A DNA stretch of 56,919 nucleotides, counting the filler, from Dimargaris cristalligena (Eukaryota): assembly GCA_003614675.1 (NCBI GenBank). It is 4 parts of 4 records of this genome, joined end to end, with 100 filler letters (N's around TTAATTAATTAA, not from the genome) between each part and the next. Parts side by side here need not be neighbours in the genome. Positions count along the whole stretch, not along the records: positions 28,582 to 42,698 come from ML002961.1; 3 more parts are not named here. The stretch is one strand, 5' to 3'. A program made the position numbers and the translations under genes. Under the pieces are notes generated by a model. That model saw only the letters and a list, made by a program, of their open reading frames with translations, was not told the DNA's origin and did no database searches. This document shows, in pieces, positions 28,482-42,698 of the stretch. Numbering within the stretch: position 1 is the stretch's first letter; each line of letters begins with the position of its first letter.

Positions 28482-28581
28482 NNNNNNNNNNNNNNNNNNN
28501 NNNNNNNNNNNNNNNNNNNNNNNNNTTAATTAATTAANNNNNNNNNNNNNNNNNNNNNNNNNNNNNNNNNNNNNNNNNNNN
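28482..28581. other. Artificial contig linker
   Basis: Same N44-TTAATTAATTAA-N44 spacer. Confidence 0.98.
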
Positions 28582-29701
28582 CGTTACACCGTTCACCCAC
28601 ATTGATGAAATTGGACGATTCGTCGTAGATGAGGGGTTCCAAACCCGATAGCAGCAGTTTCGAGTCCCCGAGCGATGGGGGTGGGATGCGAGGCGCATAG
28701 TTCCGACAGGCATCGGCAATGGCTTTAATGTGAGCGGGCGTGGTACCGCAGCAGCCCCCGATAATATTGACCAGACCGTCCCGGGCGAATTCCGCCACCT
28801 GAACGGCCATCTGGGCCGGGGATTCGTCGTATTCGCCAAAGGTATTGGGCAGACCGGCGTTGGGGTAGCAAATCACGTAATCCGACGTGAAATTAGCGAT
28901 ATTCTGCACGAAGGGGCGCATCTGAGAGGCCCCCAGCGCGCAGTTAAGCCCAATGGCCGCGGGTTTGGTATGGGACAGGGAAATAATGAAGGCCTCGCCC
29001 GTTTGACCCGACAGGGTCCGCCCACTCTGGTCCACGATGGTACCCGAGATAAAGATCGGGACCCGGGGGTAGGTGCCGTTTTCGAACAGAGTTTCAATGG
29101 CGAAGAGCGCGGCCTTGGCATTGAGGGTATCAAAAATGGTCTCGACCAGGATGATATCGGCGCCCCCGTCGAGCAAACCCCGCACCTGTTCGGTGTAGGC
29201 GATGACCAGTTCGTCAAAAGTCACGTTACGGAAGGCCGGGTTTTCCACCGATGGTGAAATGGAACAGGTCCGGTTCGTCGGACCCAGGGCTCCGCACACG
29301 TACCGCGGCCGGTCGGGGGTTTCCGCAGTCACATCCTCACACGCCCGCTTGGCCAGCTGGGCGGCCACTTTGTTGAGCTCGTAGGCCAGGTCCTCCATGG
29401 CGTAGTCGGCCTGGGCGATGGAGGTGGACGAAAAGGTGTTGGTTTCGATCAGATCCGCGCCCGCCCGGAGGTAATTCAGGTGGATCTGGTAAATGGCCTC
29501 GGGCTGGGTCAGGACCAGCAGGTCATTGTTGCCCTTGACGTCCTTGGGGTGGTCTTTGAACCGGTCGGAACGGAACTGGGCTTCGCTGAGGCGCAAATCC
29601 TGGATCTGGGTGCCCATGGCCCCGTCCAGGAAGAGAATGCGCTTCGGGAGAGCTTCGGCCAGGTAGGCGGTCGCAGAAGGGCGAACGGTAGGGGCAGCCA
29701 T
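28582..29701 (-). CDS. metH: Cobalamin-dependent methionine synthase (MetH/MTR): homocysteine-binding domain and start of pterin domain; 3'-truncated by the contig edge
   Basis: [68 protein letters not shown], Zn ligands GLNCALG and [20 protein letters not shown] at 29701. Confidence 0.96.
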
Positions 29702-30037
29702 GGTTCCCAAAATGCGGTGGGTATTTGACGGGGGAATGGAGTAGATATAGTTATTTTTTTGTTCTAAAAAAAGACAAGTGAGAAGCACAAGAGTGCGAAG
29801 GTGTGTTGTCGGGAAATAAAAGAAGTTGGGTATAATGAGCCGGAGTTTATATTCGAGTGGCAAAGGCAAATGGTATAGGAATGGGCTTCGGTGGCCATAT
29901 AAACAAGTCCAGCCTAATGTCACTTCGTATTAATCCCATCGGTGATTTGATGAGCTGATTTATATCACTTCCCAGGATCCCCGTGCTCTTTAGCTGGGAG
30001 ATTATAGGCTCCTGCACTATCCTGCTGATATTAGCGA

Positions 30038-30046
30038 ATGACTCAT
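30038..30046. promoter_or_regulatory. Perfect Gcn4/CpcA (AP-1) consensus ATGACTCAT ~340 bp upstream of MetH
   Basis: Exact 9-mer in the MetH upstream region; function is inferred only. Confidence 0.4.
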
Positions 30047-30805
30047 GATTTACTGCGCCTTTCTAGTTGGAGAATGGGTCGCAGCCCATGCCTTAGTTCT
30101 AGAGCAGGTCAATATTTGTCCACCTGTAGCTAACTGGTAAAAAGATCGACTCTCTGACTTTTGGTATATCGGATATATTCTTAGCTTGGCTATTATCTAA
30201 TTCAATGGTCAACCACCTTAAATATGAAGGATTTCGTCAAATACAGCCAGGTAGATAAGCGTCAAATTGGAGACCATTATCCATGGAGCCTGGATGGGCA
30301 GTGGCTTTCTACAAATATTGCAGCGATTTCTCCTGCATAAATATGCTCGCTTGATTGCTATGACCTACCTCAACCATCTAAAACATAACCAATTACAATT
30401 CAACTTGCACTATTGGGGTATGTTATTATGTGACCTGTATCCAGGCGCGTGGAATGGGGGGGGGGGTTTGAGAGCTATACTGATCAGCCGACTTGTACGG
30501 ATTAGTTATAGACTGGAATGGAACACATAACATTTCATTGGCATTTACTAGCTCGACTAACCACCACTTCTAGGATCTGTCCATTATACTCGGAACTCTT
30601 CAATACTTAATCGCCACAGGTCGTGGTCGCATAGGATTGTGGTCAAATTTAGGTGATTTACTAAAAACCATATTGGTAAAATTTCATACTAAAATAAAAT
30701 GTGTTTGGGCTTTTGGCCACACTAAGCCATCTAAGGCTTAAGTCGCACGGCAAAATGAAGTGCAAAAAAATAATAATATACAAGGTGGCAATGTTGTGTT
30801 ACACA

Positions 30806-33800
30806 TCAGTAAAAAAATTGAACCGACGCACCAATCTGAAGAGCGTGTGGAAATCGCGACCGGCTAGCTACGTGGCGAAGGTGTTGGCCGAAATTTACTT
30901 TTCCCTAAGAGTCAATAATCATGGAAATTTGGTTCACATCCAATCGAGGTTAATTTTTGCGAGTCTCTAGGTCTGGTACGGGCTGGGTTGCTAGTATTTT
31001 AAATGCCCCACATCGCCCGGCTGCCATGCCCCAATCATAACCATATATATAGGAAAACAGCGCAGGATTCTGGCAACACCCATTACGTTTCTGGTCCAGT
31101 ATTACTTACCTGATCGTTCCGATGCACCGATAGCGTCGAAAAGGGTTCTTTGGAGATCTGGCCCGTCTCCTGGTCAATGCAAATCATCTGGCACCGTTTG
31201 CATGGTTTAACAGTCTAGTCCCGGTGGAATTTAGGATAGTTTAAGGTTAGTACTTCGAAGGAGTTCTAGCAGTCCAGTGGGCGAGTCCTTGAAACCGACG
31301 GTGCTATAAGAATCATTATTCGTGATCCAGAGGAGGTATAACGGTAACTTACTTCATAATATTGTCCACCGATCATCACTGCCTTCCAGCCATCTTCTGC
31401 AAATGGTACCAAATCCGATTCGCTCCCAATCACTATATTGGCACGAAACCTGGGAAGATAAGTGCAGGAGGATTCTTCTGGCCTAGACTTCGGCTCGATG
31501 TCTAGGGCCTCATCCGATCGCTGGCGTACCCAGCGGCCCAGCTCGGCGGCACTGTTTTCCGAAACCAACAAGTAGGAAGACTCGTTGGCGAATGACCGAC
31601 CTGGTTGGCGGTGTGGGGTTGAGTATGGGTCGGTACTTCCCACTAAACTATCCGGTATATCTGTCGGCGAGGGATATCCGTTGGTATCCGGTTGAAGGGG
31701 TGATAATTGGCGTACAAGGTAGCAAGGAAATCCCATTACCGAAGAAAACCAGTCATTGATTCGCTCAGAGAGATACCGTATAGAATGGGTCTGGTCCCCA
31801 CACACTCGACAGTCGGCGACCTCAGATGCAGATTTGTGGTCACTTAGGCCAATTCTTAAATCGGGGTGGTCTTGCGTATTGAAGCGTAACGAGTAATATA
31901 TGCATTTAGATAAAATAGGCAGGGTAAATAAACTTAAGGGCGTCCTAGTAGTTAAGTACGACGGGCGATGGTGCTAGGTGTTTCTTCCTTGGGTAGCAGC
32001 TATATTACGGCTAGTACAAGCGAAGTAACCAAGTTAATTCTTATTATCAATCTTAACTTTACCTGGTGCAGAAACCTTCAGGGTTTGGGTGTGAGTGTCA
32101 ACCACTGGCCGGACCAAACACATCCTAGGGTATCTATGGGAAACATGGAAAGCGACGGTACAGCAAGCGGAGAAGGGTATATGATTAAAATATAAAGTCA
32201 TAAGCGTGTCCAGGTGGGCGGACATATTATAAGTATGGGAATGGCACATACATGTCCCAGCAAATAAGGGAAGTGGGTTGATACCCCCGTCCAATTTTAC
32301 TATGGATGGCACGGGGTAATTTAACTGGTTCCACCGTCAGCGAGATGGTGGATTATCATACCTTTTTTGCCCGATTGCTCGGTGAGTTCGCGCATCGATC
32401 ACTGACCAAGCTCGATCATACATCAGCCCATGTTCGGTTACGGGCCAGGATTTATCGGGGTGGATTGACATGCCATGACAGGATTTTATAGGGACTGATT
32501 AGAATCAGCAACCACCAAGGAGAACCCGATTATATATATAAGGTAAGATCCAGAAGCAGGTTAATAGGTTAATCGTGTAATTCCTCATTACGTATAGAGT
32601 TGGTTACAGACACTGTACTTTGTCATCGTTATAATTTTAACCCTTACAAATTGCTAAACCACGGAGCCGAATATCCGCAGTGGCGGGGTTGATTGTCGGC
32701 TTTGCTATCAGATTTTGGGAGCTCTGAGTCAGATCGATGCTCGATTCTAAAAACTGGGTGGCGAGGAATCGAATCCACCGGTCCACATCTTCAAAGCGGC
32801 TGGATGCCCCAAAAGAAATTCGGACCGAGCCCGTGGGCTGATTATCCACCAAGTCATGGTCATCCCAACACACATGTCCACGCTAAATAAATGGTATATA
32901 TACAGGAGTCCACCAAGTAAGAATTGTATCAGTTAGAATGCCATTAATGGGGAGTAACGATTGAGAATATAGTTAACTGTTGGGATACAGGGCTTCTTAA
33001 CCAACCTATTGTTCCTATTCCCTTTCCTTTTAAAATACCAGTTAGGTTACCTCTAAGTTGCTTTTGATTTGACCGGGCGTTAGCTGAAGCCAATGTTCCT
33101 GGGCCCCTGGGTTACACGCCCCACCTGTTCGAATGGCCAGTCGGTATAAAGTAGCCAGTTGGGCCACTTCGGCATAGCCGATCCAGTTCCCGTCGCCACG
33201 GCGCAAGTTGAAGTTTAAGATGGGGCCCTGGTGGGCCAGCCATAGAGTTATTAATCCGGCGGGATCTCCTAGGTTAGGTTGGGTGGCTAGTTGAACCAGG
33301 GCCGGGTCCAGGTACCATGTGCACAGGGGTTGGCCCGTAGGATGCACCAGTTCCTGGGCCATTCGGCGGAGCGAGTAGATGCTTAGGGCGGCTGTGTGGA
33401 AGGCCAACCGGGGCGCGGGACTAAACAGCATCTGCCAGCGATTCATGGCATGCTGTAGGGCAATAATGTCCCCGTAGTTGACGGTACCATCCTCGAACTT
33501 ATCGCTGAGCTGAGACCGGTAGCGCTGCCAGGGTTCACTGGCTATCGCTGCTGTTACAGTTCCTCCACCAAAGTAGCTCTTTTGGAAGTAGGGGGCTAAG
33601 CGATTATGTACGATCAGGGCCCCCAGGCCGGTGGGGAAACCGAATACCTTGTAAAAAGATAGGGCGACCATATCAACGGAATTTTCGTCGCTGTTGAGGT
33701 TAAGTGTGGACGTGGTGAGGTAAGAGGCGGCGTCTAGCAAGACCCACCAGGGACCCTTGGGGAGATATTGTAGGGCCCTCCTACATGGCTTGGTCGAAGC

Positions 33801-34805
33801 CCGTTGCTTGATCTGTGTAGACCAGCTTAGTGGAAAACGTGCCCCACTATAGTTACACTGGGCCGGGTAGGCGAATAGATGAAAGGGGTTGTTGGTTGGA
33901 ATGTCACTGTTATCATCCGGATCAATGGTGGATGTGGCCATCATTTTCTGAGAGAGGGCTGTAGGATTCCCTAAACATGCATCGACTTGATTGGTCGACA
34001 GGCACTTGGTATGGGCGCCAGCCTTTAAAGCCAGCTCTCTAACCCCAAGTAGTGAAGTATGGGCCATATCGTGGTACCAAAAATGACTGCCATCGCTATT
34101 CGATGGGGTTGGGCCCGTAACGACGTCATTTAGGCCCCTAGCAGCCGACTTCTGCCAGGGGAAGCATTCCCCCGCCAACTTAAGGGCCGCCGTCGCATTG
34201 GCCGTGAAAATTACCGAGTAGGTCCGTTCGGTGGTACCCAGCCAGGCCAGCACGGCTGTTCGAACTGCTTGGACCCGGTCGGCGGTGGCTAATGAAACTC
34301 GGCTCTGGGAGTGGGGATTACCGAATAGACTCTGGCACATGGTTTCGCTGAACTCGCGAATGGCCGTCTGGCTGGGGACTGTGGCCCCGGCATGGTCAAG
34401 GTAAACGTCGGGGCCTGTACCAAGAGGAGCAAAGAGGGAGGGGGGTATTGAAGGCAGTTATTCATAGTCCACTACTAGTTAGCAATAGGCACTCTCGCAT
34501 TGCGCCAGGGTAAGGGGGAATAGAAGGATATTGTCGGGGCCAGCCTACGAATACCATTTACTGTACTCGGAATGGGTCAGGCAGTGACAGTCAGGGGCCG
34601 GGACTAGCCCTGGGGGCCTGCCTTTGGGGCTTAGGCCTCTAAACCAAAAAGCAGGCCTAGGTCGTCAACAATGGACCAGCCTGTGCATGACGAACTTGCC
34701 TAGGGTTTGGCTGAATTCTGCTTGGGCAATGGTGTCTATGTCGGGGTTGTAGAACTCGGCCCATTGGTCTAGAAACGCCTCTTTGGCGTCCACGGGGGAG
34801 GTCAT
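30806..34805 (-). CDS. hxB: Molybdenum cofactor sulfurase (HxB/ABA3/MOCOS; NifS-like + MOSC domains); exons 34805-34700, 34414-33051, 32882-32648, 32494-32362, 32133-32063, 31870-31353, 31214-31110, 30904-30806
   Basis: VYLDHAGAT, FTANATAALKL, LLDAAS, PLP lysine in SFYKVFGFPTGLGAL, RTGGACNPG, GHVCWDD..TGSVRISFG, FPIKSC, DRAWSV, FANES, RFRANIV, CKRCQMICIDQETG. Phases are consistent; intron 1 has a GC donor. Confidence 0.92.
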
Positions 34806-35042
34806 CGTTCAAGGGAGGAGTTGGTGTATAAATAGGGGGGATATGAATGGTTGACAGTAATGAGCCGGGTTGCGAATGAGGGAAATGGGCTTGAGTAAGG
34901 AAAGGTATTCAGGACTAGACTAGCTGTGCGATACTGAGAGGGGGAGTCTACTATTTGAGTCGACCCGACCCAACATCGCTGCCGCATGATGATTATTGAG
35001 CAGTCCTCTAATATAATAGTCAGTCAGTGGTCCTTGTGATCA

Positions 35043-35174
35043 ATATGGGTGAAATTCAAACCAGCTGTATAAGGTTTTACATAATACATGTATGTGAGAA
35101 TACCTGTTAACCAGTAATATTGGCCTCATCCAATGGATTTTTCGTTATACAGCCTGAATGAACTTCTCCCATAT
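35043..35174 (+). repeat. MITE-like element, copy C (in the hxB/GlyRS divergent promoter)
   Basis: ATATGGGTGAAATTCAAACCAGCTGTATAA...TTATACAGCCTGAATGAACTTCTCCCATAT; ~30-bp imperfect terminal inverted repeats. Confidence 0.85.
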
Positions 35175-35483
35175 CATAAAAGACTGGTTCCAAGGAGAGG
35201 GGTGACTTTATCAGTAGCATCGTCTCTAATTAAGTCCCCCTCGCTTCTAGCAGGTACAACCACTAAGGGTGCGCGGGTTCTACACTCCTTACTGTCCAAC
35301 CCAACTGCGGAATCCCTTGGCCTTGAATGAGCCCACCCGTTTCCCCTCCCCCAGCGGCCTCTACTCCACCCTTATTATATTATATTTTATTTCTATACAC
35401 ATACCTTTATATAATATTTATTTACCTAAACCGGGGTTATTTGTTGTCCAAGACTAGTTAGTCATTCGGGTTCACTAAGTGCC

Positions 35484-37202
35484 ATGAAGGTTCTCCTCGA
35501 GCTATGTAAGCGCCGGGGCTTCCTCTTCCCCTCAGCTGAGATCCACGGAGGGCTACGGGGTGCTTACGATTACGGTCCACTGGGGGTCGAACTCAAGCGG
35601 AATATCCTTTCAAGCTGGTACCGCGATCTCGTGTACGGCCGGGACGACGTGGTGGGTACCGACACGGGCATTCTTACCCCCGCCCCGGTGTTCCAGGCCT
35701 CCGGCCATTTGAGCAACTTCACCGACGACTTGGTCGATTGTTTGCTCACCCGGGAACGGTTCCGCCCCGATAAAGCGCCGCCCCTACGCTTAGAAGCCCG
35801 AACACCGGCGTCATCGACGGTTCTGCCACTTGTATCACCGGACCGTCCAACCGCGAAGTTATGGGAGGAGGCCATAACGACCCGGCTGGCTCCCGGAGCC
35901 AAGGTAACCCGGCAGGGCAATGCGGTGTTCCTGTACCCTTTAAACCCCGAGGTGGCCGGGTCGGTATCCCCCGCGAGTGATACCGCCGTGGATCTCCTCC
36001 TCGAACCCGCTGAAAGTGGCCAGGCCCCCGTGCCCATCTCTTACCACGGCTATGCCGAACCCCATTCCAACTCCCCCTTTTTAACCGCTCCCCGGGCCTT
36101 TAATTTGATGCTGAAGTCCTTTGTTGACCCCATCGATCCCATCGAAACCGTGATCCAGGAGACCCTCGCTCAGTCCCGCCGGGCATCCACTAGCTCGACC
36201 ACTGATTACCGTCAGGCAGTAGATGCGGCCATTGGTGGCTCTACAGTATTTCTCCGGCCCGAAACGGCCCAGGGGGTCTTTATGAATTACCAACACATTC
36301 AGCGCACCACGGGCCTTCAGCCTCCGTTTGGAATTGCGCAAGTCGGTAAGGCTTTCCGAAACGAATTACGCGTAGAACACGCCATTTTCCGAACCCTCGA
36401 ATTTGAGCAACTCGAGTTGGAGTATTTTGTGCCTCCTACTAATAGTACCGAGTGGTTCAGCTACTGGCGCCAACAGCGTCTGCGATGGTGGCTGGCTTAC
36501 GCCCGCCAGGCCGACCGGTTCCGGCTGCGGGACTACGAGAAGTCCGAGCTCGCCCACTACGCGTCGGGGTGCACCGACGTAGAGTTCCAATTCCCCTGGG
36601 GCTGGGACGAACTGGAAGGTGTGGCCCACCGCGGAGATTTTGATTTACGGCAGCACTTCCCGACCGCCCCCGGTAAAGCCAGCGCCGCGTTCCCCCATTG
36701 CATCGAATCATCGGCGGGTCTGAACAGGGCCCTTCTGGCCTTATTGGTGGATGCCCTGGACGTGGTTCCCCTGGCGGATGGATCCGACCCATCCTCCCCC
36801 GCCACCGCTCCCCGTGGTGGTAATAGCGCGTCGACCAGCGCTAACCGAAATATTCTCCGCCTGCACCCCCACTTGGCCCCGTACAAGGCCGCCATCATGC
36901 CCCTAGTTGCCAAACCCGAATTATTGGGCGCGGCCCAGGAATTGCAGCGCGCCTTCCGTAAGCGACGGATCCCCGTTCGCCTGGAGCCCCAGAGCCTGAA
37001 GATCGGCAAGCGTTACTACCGGCACGACGAAATTGGGACTCCCTGGTGCATTACGGTGGACTATGATACTCTGAGTGATCGTACGGTCACTATTCGGGAC
37101 CGTGATACCACAGAGCAAACCCGGGTCCGACTCGAGGATGTCCCACACATAATTCAGGAAAATTTGGCCCAGTCACCATTTACATTCACTGACATGTCCT
37201 AA
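35484..37202 (+). CDS. Bacterial-type homodimeric (alpha2, GlyQS-like) glycyl-tRNA synthetase with POLG2-like features; intronless, 572 aa
   Basis: LCKRRGFLFPSAEIHGG..YDYGPLGVELKRN, ASGHL..FTD.LVDC, PRAFNLM, LRPETAQG, PFGIAQVGKAFRNE, FRTLEFEQLELEYF, ELAHY, FPWGWDELEGVAHRGDFDL, IESSAGLNR, LRLHPHLAPYKAA, IGKRYYRHDEIGTPWCITVD, RDRDT. Confidence 0.9.
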   Translation: MKVLLELCKRRGFLFPSAEIHGGLRGAYDYGPLGVELKRNILSSWYRDLVYGRDDVVGTDTGILTPAPVFQASGHLSNFTDDLVDCLLTRERFRPDKAPPLRLEARTPASSTVLPLVSPDRPTAKLWEEAITTRLAPGAKVTRQGNAVFLYPLNPEVAGSVSPASDTAVDLLLEPAESGQAPVPISYHGYAEPHSNSPFLTAPRAFNLMLKSFVDPIDPIETVIQETLAQSRRASTSSTTDYRQAVDAAIGGSTVFLRPETAQGVFMNYQHIQRTTGLQPPFGIAQVGKAFRNELRVEHAIFRTLEFEQLELEYFVPPTNSTEWFSYWRQQRLRWWLAYARQADRFRLRDYEKSELAHYASGCTDVEFQFPWGWDELEGVAHRGDFDLRQHFPTAPGKASAAFPHCIESSAGLNRALLALLVDALDVVPLADGSDPSSPATAPRGGNSASTSANRNILRLHPHLAPYKAAIMPLVAKPELLGAAQELQRAFRKRRIPVRLEPQSLKIGKRYYRHDEIGTPWCITVDYDTLSDRTVTIRDRDTTEQTRVRLEDVPHIIQENLAQSPFTFTDMS

Positions 37203-37542
37203 GAATACCTTTGTGGGTTACGAGGCCGTGGCCTTCCTTTAGAATAATTCCGGGGAGGTCAGTCGTCGCCTTTATATAGGAAAACGACAATGGCTTTTCC
37301 CGACCTATAATGTATATAACCCTACACTAGACATACTGGTCAATAAATCGACGGCGACTTGTGGAATCATAGATCGCGTTCCGCTCTCTTAGTCGTATGT
37401 GAGTGAGACACAAAGATAGGATATGCTTTATTTGCTGACGCGCACTATTGACTACTACATTGTGCCAATGGTAGGTTGAATTAGGTGTTCCTTCCGTTGA
37501 TCTGCCTTCTTAATATACATTGGGTGGATTGTTGGTATTGTT

Positions 37543-38703
37543 CTAGACACTACCTTTGGGGATCTGTCCGATTTTATTTAATTTCGTGTCCAAAAACTTG
37601 TATTTGGGCAAGGCCTAGGGGGTACACAACAAGATGGCATGATGAATTGCGAGGGTATGTACAGGTAGTTAGTTAATCCACGAAGCTAAGTAGGTTCGGA
37701 AAGTTTCGCATCGCAGTTGGTAATATATATTAGATGCGGGGCTTTCACAGCCCGTAACATTAGAAACTTACAATAGCCCACACTTTTCCGAAAAGCAGAC
37801 CCATGGGGAGAGGTCCGTATAGTCGGGAGTCGATCGAATAGCCCATATTGTCCCCCTGAATCCAGATATGACCCGGGGGTACCTAAATCAAACAATATAG
37901 AGGAGTTATATGTGCGTATTAATATGCGCAACACATTTAGGGAACTACTGCTATATTACAGCGCGATCGAATCACCGGCATTGGAATGTTATATGATTTG
38001 TGAGCCCAACAATGTTACATAGTCTTCCTACCTCGATCGTGGGGCTGTCCGATTTGCGGGGATCGTGGATTATTCGGTCACCGGGCTAATCATTAAGTAG
38101 ATATGGCAGGGATACCTTATTGATAAGATGAGTTACGGGTATCAAAGGGGCGACAGTTCAAAGGTTCGGTCAAGACTAATGTGAGTATAGACATGTTCCC
38201 TTAAAATCACAAAGGCAAAATGGGTATAACTTACCATGCCCAGTAGTCGCTTACAAATCAAGCGATTAGGATCGCTCGGGCTAACACACAGAACTACATC
38301 GCCGGGTTTCAGCCACCCCATTCGATGGCTGATTCGGTCGTAAGCGAGCCAGTCCCCTTGGACATGCAGGGTGGGTAGCATAGACGGGCCGTCGGACTAA
38401 GCGATAGGGATGAGTATATTAGAATCAATTATATGAAACCAGCCAGTGCGGTGGAGTTAGAGTACAATCTCACCGGCCAATATTGGGGTGCGTGCGTAAG
38501 CTTCAGCAAGGGAACCCTGGGTCGTTCGCCAGGAGTAGAGTGTCAAAAGTCGAGACGGTCCCGTTACTTACCTGGGAGATACTACCGACGTTATCTTTAA
38601 AAACCGAGTAAAGTAGATACCCTTGGGCTGTGGTAAATGTGACTGCCTGGACGAAATGGCCGGACCGATTCCACCAGGCTTTGAGATTTGCGGTAAAGGA
38701 CAT
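37543..38703 (-). CDS. IMP1: Mitochondrial inner membrane protease subunit 1 (S26); exons 38703-38572, 38396-38235, 38085-38032, 37882-37772, 37614-37543
   Basis: Catalytic Ser in GPSMLPTL, Lys in ICKRLLGMPGD, and VPPGHIWIQGDN...SIDSRLYGPLP; GT-AG introns in phase. Confidence 0.88.
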
Positions 38704-39049
38704 GTCGTTCGAATGCGCGCGTCCCTGATGGCAAGGCGGTAGAGGAGCAAGTAAGACCTTATAAGCAAACCTTAACAAAAAAGGTAGTCGGACCAAGTTG
38801 GATTCCGAGCAATGGAGATTTGGAGGATCATAGGGGTAAAGTGCTAGAGAGTGGGGCAGTTTTCAGCCGCATCCCACTTACACCCACATCCCCGGCCTTG
38901 GTGGTTTCTGGTGTAACTCTTTCAGCCTGACCTCTTAGGTCCGACTTCGCATTGCCTTTGAATGATTTCTTCAGCTTGACCACTAAGCGCAATATTATTT
39001 ACCCAACCATTGTCAGGCCTATTGACGATAGCCGCGAACTGTATTGGCC

Positions 39050-40741
39050 ATGTACCCCAGCGAAGTGGAGTTTTTACGACAGTGGCCAAAGGCCCTTGGC
39101 TTTATTCAGCAGGACCAAGTACATGCCTTGCAATCCCTTGCCAGTCAACTCGGAGCTAATTTAAACGGTAAGGGAGAGGGCGGCGACTTGGAAGTATACT
39201 ACTAACACTCCCCTTCAAGGTATTCCAGTTGGGGGGATATCATTTCCCTTGAATGTGGACCACCATTCCTCATACTCAGCAGTATTCAGCGATATCCAAT
39301 AATGTAATTGACTATTCGGCAATGGTATGTAGCCTTCGTCGTACACCAAGATAAGCACGGGGATACCTTGGCCCACTTTGCGGCCCGCCACCACGCTCTC
39401 GGCTGCCTCCACTGGCTAGTGGATGAGGCGGGGGCTGACCCAAATATTATTAACCAGCATGGTAAGTGCCTTTTTCTCAGATATCTCACCCTGAGCTCGT
39501 TATAGTGTAGCCTCACAAACGAACGATATATATCCTTCTCTGCCATGTGTGCTGTCGTGTTTGGTTATTAAGTACTCCTTATGTTCTGGGCTGCTATTCA
39601 CTGGGCCCCCGTTGACTTCGATAGGTCGCTCAATTCTACATGAGGCTGTAGATGATCTACCCTGCCTCGAGTACCTTCTCCAATTCAGTAAGAGGGAGAG
39701 TGGCCAGCGGGTATATATCGACATTAACCATGCCAAGCGAGGCGGCTGGACAGTTCTACACACAGCCGCCTTGAAGGGCAACGCCTCGCTAGTTTCCCTT
39801 TTACTTGATCATGGTGCGGAACCCCGCCTTCGCAATAAAGATGGCTACACACCAGTCCATCTGGCCAGTCAGTATAACCAACTGACTGCCCTTCAACTCA
39901 TGGTGAGGGCCCAACCTAGCTCGGCCCTTTTGGCCACACGAAACGGACGTTTACCAATTCATCTGGCTGCCCGGCAGGGCGGTCGAGAGGTGGTCCTTTG
40001 GTTCCTCGAGGCCGCTAGCGAGAACCGTCATCGGGACCACCCTACTGCAGGCGGGGTCAGTGATTCAGCTGGCGGGTGGTCAGTCCCGGCTATGTTAGAG
40101 GCGGAGGATAGTGCAGGGGCTGATGTGCTCCAAGACGCTGTCGTAAGTGGGTCGGTCCCTTTACTCAGTGCACTTCTCCACCCGGAGACAACATCCCCCT
40201 GGCGAGACTTCCTACTAGCCTCCCATCGGCTCACCCGGCCCGAACACTCTACTGGCAAGACCATTCTCCACCTGGCCTGTATGGCTAACCACTTGCTAGT
40301 CCTGGAATATCTTTACCAACATGATATGGTGGGTGACCCAAATGTGCGCGACACCTGGGATGGCTGGTCCCCACTGATGTACTCGGCCCGGTATGGGGAT
40401 GTTAATATCATTGATTTTTTAATACGCCGGTGCCAGGCTAACAAACAACTTACCGACCGGCATGGGCGAACGGCTCTTGATATTGGTAAGTTATTTGCCA
40501 TATTAATATATATTCGACCTTATTTTGTATTTACATTATGAAGCTCCTGGTCATTTGCACGCGAGAATGGGGTTTAGCAGGTATATTGGTAAAATATGGT
40601 ACCCTAATGGGTTGGTGAGTTATAAAACATTAACCCTTCTATATTTTTTTTTTAAAAAATCCAATATCGCTCTGTGGTCTACTATTAGCGCTCATGTGGA
40701 AGCGACCACCAGCCGTCATGGATCTGCTAGGGCCACCCTGA
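39050..40741 (+). CDS. Ankyrin-repeat protein, ANKRD16-like; exons 39050-39167, 39333-39461, 39625-40485, 40689-40741
   Basis: Consecutive ankyrin repeats GDTLAHFAARH, GRSILHEAV, GWTVLHTAA, RNKDGYTPVHLA, GRLPIHLAA, AEDSAGADVLQDAV, GKTILHLAC, GWSPLMYSA, GRTALDIA. The first exon and intron 1 acceptor are less certain. Confidence 0.8.
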
Positions 40742-41014
40742 TACAAATATTCAAACCACTCGATTTCTATATTACCGTATCAGATAATACATTTCATAGC
40801 ATTTATGGAAAACCAACCAAACTCTATCACTAAAAATACACTACAATTATAATTTCCGTAATTATTGGAGTAATTTGACGGTCGTTTTATTAGCTGGACT
40901 GCTGGTTACGATGAGCGCGACTTGTAAACGAGTTGTCGTAAACGTAAATTACTTGGAGATGTCCTACAAATGAATCATTCCAAACGGCAGTATAAGTTAC
41001 CGTTTCACAAATCA

Positions 41015-42134
41015 CTACATTCCGATGTGTATTTTCCTATGTTCTGTGAGATTATTAGATTGTGCGAATGATGCAGGGTAAATAGTACATGTATAAGGCT
41101 TCTCCCCAGTATGCAATCGCATATGCCTCGTGAGACTACCGGACTGTGAAAATGAGTTTGGGCAGATTGGGCAGATATAAGGCTTCTCCCCGGTGTGAGT
41201 TCGTAAATGTGCTGAGAGATGACTGGATTGTAAAAACGACTTCGGGCAATATATGCAGGTAAAGGTCCTCGTCCCGACATGGGCTCGCAAATGTGCCGAG
41301 GGCTTACTGTGCTGTAAAAATAATTTGGGGCAGTTTTCGCAGTTTAAATGTTTCTCCCTGGTGTGTTGGCATATGTTTCTTGAGATTACGAGCGTTGGAA
41401 AGTGATTTTTTGCAAACGTCACGTATATGGGTCTTCGCTTTTGGCCGTGATCCTAAATCGGACTTGATTCGCTTCTGGTCCGACATTGATCGTCCGGCTT
41501 GATCACTGACGGACAGTTTCCGCCTGTTGGGCAATGCCGTGTTTATTTTAGAATGAATGGGCCTCACAGGTATACGTCGGTTGTGACGACGAGTGTCGGG
41601 ATCTAATTCCACTACCTGCCTTACCTGCCGCTGGAGGGGACTGCCTCCGGATGCCAATGTATTTGTAACGGCGGGATCCCAGTCCATAATGGACGGATCA
41701 CCAAGTACTACCGGCTCTAAAAAAGCACGGTCACTCCCACTGCTAGCGTCAGTTGTACCTAATACGCCACCCTCAGCATAGGGAAAGGATCTCGCCGACA
41801 CGAGTTGGTTGCTGAGGTAGTCAGAGCCAAAGTATTTTTCTGACTGGTGGAGTCCTGTGTCATCGGTATTACTCATGGTCGCTTCGAGCTGTTTAATGAA
41901 TTGACCCAATCCGTCCCTATCTAACAGACTTATACGGTCAAATATCAAGGATAGCAGTGGGTTTGTGGAGCGGGGCACTGCGAATGTCCTAGTGACTGCA
42001 GCACTGATACCCAACTGAGAACTATGGGTATAGGAAAACGGGTCGGCTGGGTCAAGTTCGGGATTGTTTGCTTCAGAACCACAAATCATGGACAGTACTG
42101 CCAGAACAACGCTGGATACTTTGAACACACGCAT
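41015..42134 (-). pseudogene. Signal peptide + basic NLS-like segment + five C2H2 zinc fingers (two degenerate); frameshift at ~41361-41366
   Basis: ORF from ATG 42134 (MRVFKVSSVVLAVLSMICGSEA) runs to a degenerate finger RDVC..HMPTH. The finger array continues in another frame (41015-41422) with TGEKPY linkers. Restoring one AC unit in AACACACC joins the two frames. Confidence 0.75.
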
Positions 42135-42698
42135 TTTTGGACAGCTGTTCAAGAATAATTTAAAGTGAAAGATAAAAGAAAGTGGGTTAAGACAAAGACA
42201 AGAAAAAATGACTGTAATGGTTCAACCATTTACCTCTGAAGATATATTTTGCATACAAAATGGATAGTATAGTGAATAACGTACTTTTGACCATGTTCAA
42301 TTTCAAGTATGTGAGAAGAGGGGACATACCATATCGGTAAATACTGGGGTTAGCAAATATATATATATTGCCTGAATGTGTCTATAGATGATGGCGACGA
42401 TGTTTGCAAACAAAGAGTGCTTCCAAGTCTCATAGGGGTGTCCTATGCACCTTAAAGTGTGCGTATGACTAGTATCTGGGAGTATACCATTGTTACACCA
42501 TGTCGCCCGAGTTAACCACTCTTAGTCCGTCAAGAGTCTCGGGGGTAGGCTTCTAACAGTAGGCGGGGCGTTGGACATGGCCAAGCGGGCTACTAGTGTT
42601 AGGGGGGGTGACAAGACTAACCGAATAAAGCAAGCGTAAGTTGTAGGTGAGGTCCGTGCACTAGATGCACACTTACTGGTCAGTACTAGGGGGTGATT

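Follow-up and report, generated by a model that had tools for sequence, protein, structure and literature searches.

The stretch of DNA analysed here (the window; 56,919 nucleotides, filler included) consists of four joined parts of the genome of the fungus Dimargaris cristalligena (GenBank assembly GCA_003614675.1), with positions 28,582 to 42,698 derived from record ML002961.1. Judged from its sequence, an open reading frame (ORF) at 35484–37202 on the plus strand most likely encodes a homodimeric class II glycyl-tRNA synthetase (GlyRS) of the bacterial alpha2 subtype. We consider it probable, taking the explanation as a whole, that this enzyme is active, that it descends from a single acquisition predating the opisthokonts, that it is likely to serve mitochondria and that it is kin to POLG2, the accessory subunit of animal mitochondrial DNA polymerase gamma. 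The family is already labelled 'glycyl-tRNA synthetase' in databases for many early-diverging fungi and the ORF is an ordinary member of it; the significance lies in the position of the family, not in the ORF itself. It appears to be an opisthokont-wide bacterial-type GlyRS, predicted to be still catalytic, of which the holozoan members match POLG2 best and whose donor would lie near Candidatus Uabimicrobium, not Thermus, and it gives a starting point for rethinking, in a testable way, the origin of POLG2.

The ORF forms one ATG-to-stop frame of 572 codons plus stop, intronless and with zero internal stops on translation, as the initial annotation had described, and all of the ORF motifs quoted there are present in the translation. 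The protein scores 446.7 bits against the NCBIfam model NF003211 (glycine--tRNA ligase; cut-off 312) and 384.1 bits against TIGR00389 (glyS_dimeric; cut-off 243.3), and Pfam at E-values up to 0.1 returns tRNA-synt_2b and HGTP_anticodon only. A sequence search of the PDB gave 338 bits for the Mycobacterium GlyRS (8t5n), 294 for the Thermus enzyme (1ati), 221 for Nanoarchaeum, about 190 for human GARS, which ranked under five bacterial chains, and about 100 for POLG2. Together with the trees described below, the family scores and the PDB ranking uphold the earlier assignment to bacterial alpha2 GlyRS and not to eukaryotic GARS/Grs1. An AlphaFold2 model of the protein, calculated from 17 homologues (mean predicted local distance difference test score, pLDDT, of 78.3), has the Mycobacterium and Thermus GlyRSs as its top Foldseek matches (E of 3e-43, TMt 0.80); the highest-ranked POLG2 chain stands 23rd (E of about 1e-27, TMt 0.76–0.80).

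The fold, domain order, catalytic motifs and HGTP domain resemble those of bacterial alpha2 GlyRS (PRK04173/TIGR00389; Mycobacterium 8t5n/8sld and Thermus 1ati), but the fungal protein is eukaryotic and nuclear-encoded, has a longer insertion domain and carries an extra helix-loop-helix (HLH) insert of ∼28 residues before motif 2, a region that the Thermus and Mycobacterium alignments leave uncovered. The GlyRS of Ca. Uabimicrobium is 42% identical and has the HLH insert, FPWGW.ELEG, LHP.LAPYK and RDRDTT in common with it, although this bacterial protein (P0103) has C-P-x-C-G where the fungal ORF has Y-A-E-P-H-S-N-S; the GlyRSs of the bacterial sister group to which it belongs are 520–567 residues long, with an insertion domain shorter than the fungal one. 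The eukaryotic/archaeal-type GARS1/Grs1 enzymes share the reaction and the broad family (TIGR00389 takes in both), but the fungal ORF is placed inside the bacterial-type clade and scores 190 bits against human GARS compared with 338 against the bacterial type. Membership in the GARS1/Grs1 group is ruled out, as the sister group of the clade is bacterial and human GARS scores below bacterial chains. The name 'GlyQS' used in the initial annotation was wrong: it denotes the unrelated alpha2beta2 bacterial enzyme, which also charges tRNA-Gly but has an unlike architecture. GlyQ and GlyS are Pfam families of their own, and an alpha2beta2 identity is ruled out by the presence of tRNA-synt_2b and HGTP_anticodon only. 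A literature match to 'bacterial-like GlyRS' also concerns the alpha2beta2 enzyme.

The closest database match is a protein of Dimargaris xerosporica (62% identity over 99% of the query), followed by a partial match in Dispira parvispora (61%). About a hundred further proteins with 43–53% identity, from Mucorales, Mortierellomycotina, Endogonales, Basidiobolus, Entomophthorales, Zoopagales, Ramicandelaber and Blastocladiomycota, are found among the best 120 matches, in which the first bacterial protein, from Candidatus Uabimicrobium (42%), stands near rank 102. No protein of Dikarya or Chytridiomycota occurs among these best 120, where bacterial matches of 42% already occur. A profile of 17 fungal sequences matched 15764 of 1.84 billion representatives, and the best 150 of these 15764 were examined; the organisms behind 30 identifiers from this or related searches were looked up by exact sequence. 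The eukaryotes named in this way are the fungi Conidiobolus and Catenaria, Fonticula alba, the ichthyosporeans Amoebidium, Creolimax, Sphaeroforma and Chromosphaera, the filasterean Capsaspora, the calcareous sponge Sycon ciliatum and Plasmodium, the GlyRS of which is placed elsewhere in the tree, outside the opisthokont clade. The search of non-Dikarya fungi and unicellular holozoans proposed in the initial annotation has thus recovered the same gene in both. The named sister bacteria are Ca. Uabimicrobium sp., U. amorphum, two Planctomycetota metagenome-assembled genomes and one Bdellovibrionota metagenome-assembled genome.

Three trees place these eukaryotic sequences in one clade beside the bacteria. 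In a FastTree analysis of 232 rows, 34 eukaryotic rows (support 96) are sister (100) to 12 bacterial rows. A quick site-heterogeneous IQ-TREE run (72 rows × 507 columns) groups the eukaryotes (26 rows) with a support of 99, the eukaryotes plus nine sister bacteria with 100 and the Fonticula group plus fungi with 98. A careful IQ-TREE run (48 rows × 545 columns, LG+C20+F+G4), from which Sycon, as the longest branch, and 23 outgroup rows were excluded, separates bacteria from eukaryotes at 100/98 and recovers the fungi at 98/94, the Fonticula group plus fungi at 91/94 and the window ORF plus Dimargaris at 100/98. The branching within the eukaryotic clade matches accepted relationships, with Fonticula beside the fungi and Mucoromycota nested among Zoopagomycota-grade lineages, as would be expected under vertical descent from a single acquisition that predated the animal–fungal split. 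We are accordingly rather confident that there was one GlyRS acquisition and that it was pre-opisthokont; the single clade of Holomycota plus Holozoa and its clean separation from bacteria fit the suggestion, already made in the initial annotation, of an acquisition before animals and fungi diverged. The donor would have been a bacterium akin to Candidatus Uabimicrobium and its relatives, with a single transfer and vertical inheritance afterwards, and the gene would have been retained in non-Dikarya fungi, Fonticula, Ichthyosporea and Filasterea and probably also in the calcareous sponge. Capsaspora, Chromosphaera and P0131 have long branches, the longest being that of Sycon (1.9), and the place of Sycon in the eukaryotic clade is less secure. 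A five-residue indel around FPWG, considered as a clade marker, occurs solely in Actinomycetota-type sequences and is uninformative for the clades of interest.

The class II motifs RPETAQG, FRNE, EFEQ.E.E and IE.S.G..R, which we take from the Thermus structures to line the glycine/ATP site, are all intact in the ORF. The 17 fungal sequences show no variation at R258–G264, F291–E294, E306–E311, E408, S410, G412 and R415. Of 110 reference columns with a conservation of 95% or more across 80 named bacterial GlyRSs, the window ORF keeps 95, compared with 97 in Rhizopus, 97 in Fonticula, 100 in Capsaspora, 92 in Amoebidium and 79 in Sycon. The observation in the initial annotation that the glycine/ATP-site motifs are intact therefore holds. 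Because the conserved bacterial columns are kept and the motif residues are invariant in fungi, the ORF protein is read as a working synthetase, and with good confidence we predict it to be an active GlyRS. By analogy with the family, its catalytic domain would activate glycine with ATP and pass the glycine to tRNA-Gly, and its C-terminal HGTP domain would read the tRNA-Gly anticodon. Its role would be to charge mitochondrial tRNA-Gly alongside a canonical cytosolic GARS, and we lean slightly towards such a mitochondrial role for the fungal enzyme. Basic N-terminal extensions are present on Capsaspora (87 residues), Creolimax (63 residues) and the Fonticula relative P0122 (about 30 residues), and POLG2 is a mitochondrial protein.

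The relationship to POLG2 was assessed with four group profiles scored against PDB chains. Against human POLG2, Mycobacterium-type GlyRS, Thermus GlyRS and human GARS, respectively, the holozoan profile (six sequences, Sycon excluded) gave 196, 510, 454 and 255 bits, the fungal profile (17 sequences) 170, 527, 477 and 328 bits, the sister-bacteria profile (six sequences) 153.5, 552, 476 and 263 bits and the profile of other bacteria (six sequences: Mycobacterium, Lysinibacillus, Bacteroides, Pirellula, a verrucomicrobium and a Dehalococcoidia) 117, 768, 593 and 351 bits. The holozoan profile is thus the best of the four on POLG2, the worst on Mycobacterium GlyRS, Thermus GlyRS and human GARS and the second-worst on Nanoarchaeum GlyRS. 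Since the remote controls (human GARS and Nanoarchaeum GlyRS) fail to rise with the holozoan profile, profile breadth alone is an insufficient explanation. For single sequences, the ratio of POLG2 to Mycobacterium GlyRS bits increases from 0.28 in Uabimicrobium through 0.30 in the window ORF and 0.36 in Capsaspora to 0.45 in Sycon. Individual residues follow the clade as well: 44 of 45 clade members have the W of FPWG, compared with 12 of 186 other sequences, and 44 of 45 have the H of LHP, compared with 65 of 186. Human POLG2, as aligned with Sycon, has both residues, and it also has the WW...A form of the post-motif-2 helix. We think it fairly probable, from these comparisons, that animal POLG2 arose from the holozoan branch of this GlyRS clade and lost its catalytic activity.

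The fungal gene, on this view, would be a cousin of POLG2 that has stayed functional, and not an intermediate. The two proteins are alike in overall fold, have the clade signature residues in common and probably also the HLH insert, but human POLG2 has lost the chemistry of motifs 2 and 3 (RKLRENL in place of RPETAQ, no FRNE), while the fungal ORF keeps all of its motifs; POLG2 also appears to lack the large insertion domain, as judged from how few residues separate its N-terminal part from the HLH. The degenerate synthetase motifs that are a hallmark of POLG2 are not found in the fungal ORF, which at 338 bits (Mycobacterium) against about 100 (POLG2) stands nearer to a working GlyRS. The proposal in the initial annotation of a GlyRS–POLG2 intermediate is not sustained, with 95 of the 110 columns kept and about 100 bits to POLG2 compared with about 135 for the Uabimicrobium GlyRS. 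It had been based on segments likened to human POLG2. The W..W...RL.WW helix, 'LKLHP.LAPIK', 'RSRDTT' and 'ELLHMYP' are indeed present in human POLG2 as aligned with Sycon, the N-terminal string was not seen there, and the placing of the W-rich helix at 36423–36503 is correct, corresponding to residues 314–340. Four of the five POLG2-like segments occur in the Uabimicrobium GlyRS as well (the ELLHMYP/DLRQHFP pair was not compared), so these are ancestral states of the clade and mark no special likeness of the fungus.

The intermediate-looking protein is, by its sequence, that of Sycon. This protein (P0148, 543 residues, labelled 'glycine--tRNA ligase-like' and encoded on a 34-Mb contig) has GlyRS architecture with several invariant residues lost, and it may be either a sponge POLG2 orthologue or a decaying second GlyRS. 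At Sycon positions 239–536, 34 residues occur in at most two of 231 other sequences, and six of these are identical in human POLG2 when compared by eye; they include T to L in RPETAQ (1/231), I to M in DEIG (0/231) and D to S in R-D-R (2/231). About two such matches would be expected by chance, and with a per-site match rate between 5 and 10% the binomial p lies between 0.006 and 0.12, which makes these rare shared states suggestive, but not strong, evidence of kinship. A database search for close relatives of the Sycon protein gave bacterial and fungal GlyRSs alone among the best 120 matches, and a search with residues 95–262 alone found only Sycon itself, one of 229 candidates.

The HLH insert offers a further connection. 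The linker from FNLMF to RPETAQ spans 42–45 residues in all 12 sister bacteria, has a median of 45 in 27 Holomycota rows and spans 43–48 in the three measurable holozoan rows, against 10–19 in 131 of 145 other sequences; an insert of ∼28 residues before RPETAQ is therefore a marker of the sister bacteria plus the opisthokont clade. In the full-length human numbering of 5c51_B, the first aligned POLG2 residue is 181 when the profile lacks the insert, against 151 for the profile of sister bacteria and 155 for that of holozoans. As the alignments reach 151–155 solely with insert-bearing profiles, the HLH of POLG2 appears to sit at, and align with, the HLH insert of the clade, which makes the two candidate counterparts. 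The additional aligned stretch overlaps the human POLG2 deletion I4 (R147–G179) described by Oliveira et al. (2015; PMC4419789), which removes most of the HLH-3beta dimerisation domain; they treat this domain as a vertebrate novelty of unknown origin.

Several observations weigh against the explanation favoured here. The ORF protein and most of its fungal homologues are without a presequence, the conserved core beginning only a few residues after their first. The POLG2 link stands on profile scores, one insert and a few signature residues, and the trees contain no POLG2. The planctomycete (Uabimicrobium) GlyRS scores 135 bits on POLG2, level with Sycon at 131, and the count of rare states common to Sycon and POLG2 was scored by eye and is just marginally over chance. 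Sycon lies on a very long branch (1.9), and an approximately unbiased (AU) test retains the tree that places it with the nine sister bacteria (delta log-likelihood 8.9, p of 0.21). Holozoan monophyly is weak, with a support of 73.9 when Sycon is included and 29/0 when it is not.

The absence of an N-terminal extension from the ORF protein and most fungal homologues would suit a non-mitochondrial enzyme, that is, a second cytosolic or specialized GlyRS (a stress isoform or one with a non-translational role), with mitochondria served by an isoform of the canonical GARS as in yeast and humans. We regard this as unlikely, though it fares best among the alternatives: the holozoan members carry long basic extensions, POLG2 is the sole known derivative of such a protein and is mitochondrial, and retention across several fungal phyla with 95 of the 110 conserved columns points to a non-redundant translational job.

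Somewhat less likely again is that the fungal/holozoan GlyRS and animal POLG2 stem from two independent acquisitions from the same or a related bacterial lineage, with no common eukaryotic ancestor. The lack of POLG2 from the trees, the AU result for Sycon and the planctomycete score on POLG2 are all compatible with such separate transfers, and some POLG2 states (for example W-L-D before the WW helix) are nearer to the sister-bacteria consensus than to the fungal/holozoan one; published work also has POLG2 as a metazoan acquisition. Against two transfers, the Sycon-free holozoan profile exceeds the sister-bacteria profile by 43 bits on POLG2, while it is worse on Mycobacterium GlyRS, Thermus GlyRS and human GARS and better solely on Nanoarchaeum GlyRS. 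Moreover, the gene is already present in the closest unicellular relatives of animals that were found (Capsaspora and Ichthyosporea), and to invoke this rare bacterial clade as a donor twice is less economical. Pre-opisthokont descent of POLG2 is favoured over an independent transfer because unicellular holozoans possess the gene and their profile outscores that of the sister bacteria.

An extension of the proposed common descent, which we put forward as speculative and improbable, is that in non-Dikarya fungi and unicellular holozoans the enzyme both charges mitochondrial tRNA-Gly and binds Mip1/POLG as a processivity or loading factor, perhaps via the HLH insert. Animals would then have kept the second job alone once GARS1 had taken over mitochondrial charging, and the vertebrate HLH-3beta dimerisation element would have been inherited from the bacterial donor instead of being invented in vertebrates.

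A 2025 preprint (10.1101/2025.09.02.673565) places the origin of Polg2 in Metazoa, states that fungi and choanoflagellates lack it and gives GARS1 as its closest relative outside animals. The Thermus GlyRS serves as the outgroup in Oliveira et al. (2015; PMC4419789), who cite Wolf & Koonin (2001), the title of which names the Thermus–Deinococcus group as the source. In Pett & Lavrov (2015; PMC4558845), GlyRS is listed among the animal mitochondrial aminoacyl-tRNA synthetases for which one of two lineages was lost early, and the taxa sampled there include Capsaspora, Creolimax and Sphaeroforma. The literature searched, with most subscription journals outside it, contained no paper tying POLG2 to the fungal/holozoan bacterial-type GlyRS. 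If the descent proposed here is true, the origin of POLG2 shifts to before animals, living active relatives become available for studying the change from synthetase to polymerase subunit, and the view of HLH-3beta as a vertebrate novelty needs rethinking.

The complete ORF (35484–37202, plus strand, as for all of the features below) aligns end to end with the D. xerosporica homologue, with 99% query coverage. The N-terminal catalytic part (35484–35777; residues 1–98), with YDYGPLGVELK and SGH, matches residues 25–118 of the Mycobacterium GlyRS at 104.5 bits; it has no N-terminal extension, and most of the fungal N-termini compared share the same starting point. The 18 in-frame codons 5' of the ATG (35430–35483) are open and Ser/Leu/Arg/His-rich, with zero acidic residues, and the starting Met of the Dimargaris homologue corresponds to a Leu codon in this fungus; a non-AUG start yielding a short presequence is possible. 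The insertion domain (35778–36128; residues 99–215), delimited from the AlphaFold2 model and by comparison of lengths, ends with the NSPFL...FNLM return to the core. It is mostly β in the model (strands 112–117, 141–150, 169–173 and 183–187; helix 121–135), with pLDDT mostly 85–97. The distance from SGH to RPETAQ has a median of 182 residues in Holomycota, 140 in the sister bacteria and 123 in other sequences, and the insertion domain of the ORF protein is longer than the bacterial one. The HLH insert (36129–36239; residues 216–252), with modelled helices at 219–233 and 239–251, lies immediately ahead of the RPETAQG strand.

The motif-2 region (36240–36431; residues 253–316) comprises RPETAQG (258–264), FRNE (291–294) and EFEQLELE (306–313), which are invariant in 17 of 17 fungi and conserved in the 80 bacterial GlyRSs. 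It is followed in the model by the continuation of the core (36432–36692; residues 317–403), with the W..W...RL.WW helix (318–339) and FPWGWDELEG, and by motif 3 (36693–36755; residues 404–424; PHCIESSAGLNR...), in which E408, S410, G412 and R415 are the residues invariant in the fungal alignment. A low-complexity, low-confidence linker (36756–36842; residues 425–453; pLDDT <50 at residues 437–452) leads to the C-terminal anticodon-binding domain (36843–37172; residues 454–563), which is modelled with pLDDT >90 and matched by PF03129 at residues 468–560 with 75 bits.

The GlyRS ORF belongs to the fungal genome and is not a contaminant. Neighbouring ORFs encode, according to Pfam, Zn_clus plus Fungal_trans, a SecY/Sec61 plug (Sec61 alpha), ankyrin repeats and Aminotran_5 (a class-V aminotransferase). 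Five public DNA runs from two studies contain the stretch; in the independent second study, a 7974-base contig spans 35377–39500 with two differences and a 16814-base contig spans 32500–35069, and contigs of 7206 and 7974 bases, from the two studies, link the ORF to downstream eukaryotic sequence up to 39500. The chance of bacterial contamination or a chimeric assembly insert, for which one might cite the lack of introns, the bacterial identity of the nearest non-eukaryotic relatives and the breaking of short-read contigs at a high-copy repeat at ∼35040–35180 just 5' of the ORF, is negligible, given that contigs of two studies continue from the ORF into downstream eukaryotic DNA, that the genes on either side are fungal and that about 100 fungal proteins are its closest relatives, in a gene tree that mirrors fungal relationships. 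The fungal neighbours and these contigs agree with the expectation in the initial annotation that contamination was unlikely.

The repeat itself, at approximately 35040–35180, is a very high-copy dispersed element on which hundreds of short contigs stack, with a summed contig depth of about 3e4–2e5 compared with 13–200 in the flanks; the short-read contigs of both studies end there and break only there. Elsewhere in the window, a run of N (read as X) at ∼28526–28570, which we take to be masked or unresolved sequence, is found where a minus-strand ORF ends, an ORF that resembles methionine synthase/homocysteine S-methyltransferase (named by eye).

Two further observations concern other members of the wider family. 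In the gene model of the Chromosphaera perkinsii protein (P0130, 1473 residues), the GlyRS part (about 851–1471) is joined to an N-terminal Peptidase_M3 domain (364–851, 301 bits), which may represent a true fusion or two merged neighbouring genes; the Peptidase_M3 family takes in mitochondrial intermediate peptidase. P0179, P0146, P0190 and P0195 form a separate group of long GlyRS-like proteins (525–637 residues) that is distant from the opisthokont clade in the FastTree analysis and may represent other eukaryotic GlyRS acquisitions. P0179, which groups near the other three, originates from a eukaryotic transcriptome set, and the linker before RPETAQ is also long in this group, with 38–72 residues in P0146, P0195 and P0190 and 37 in P0179.

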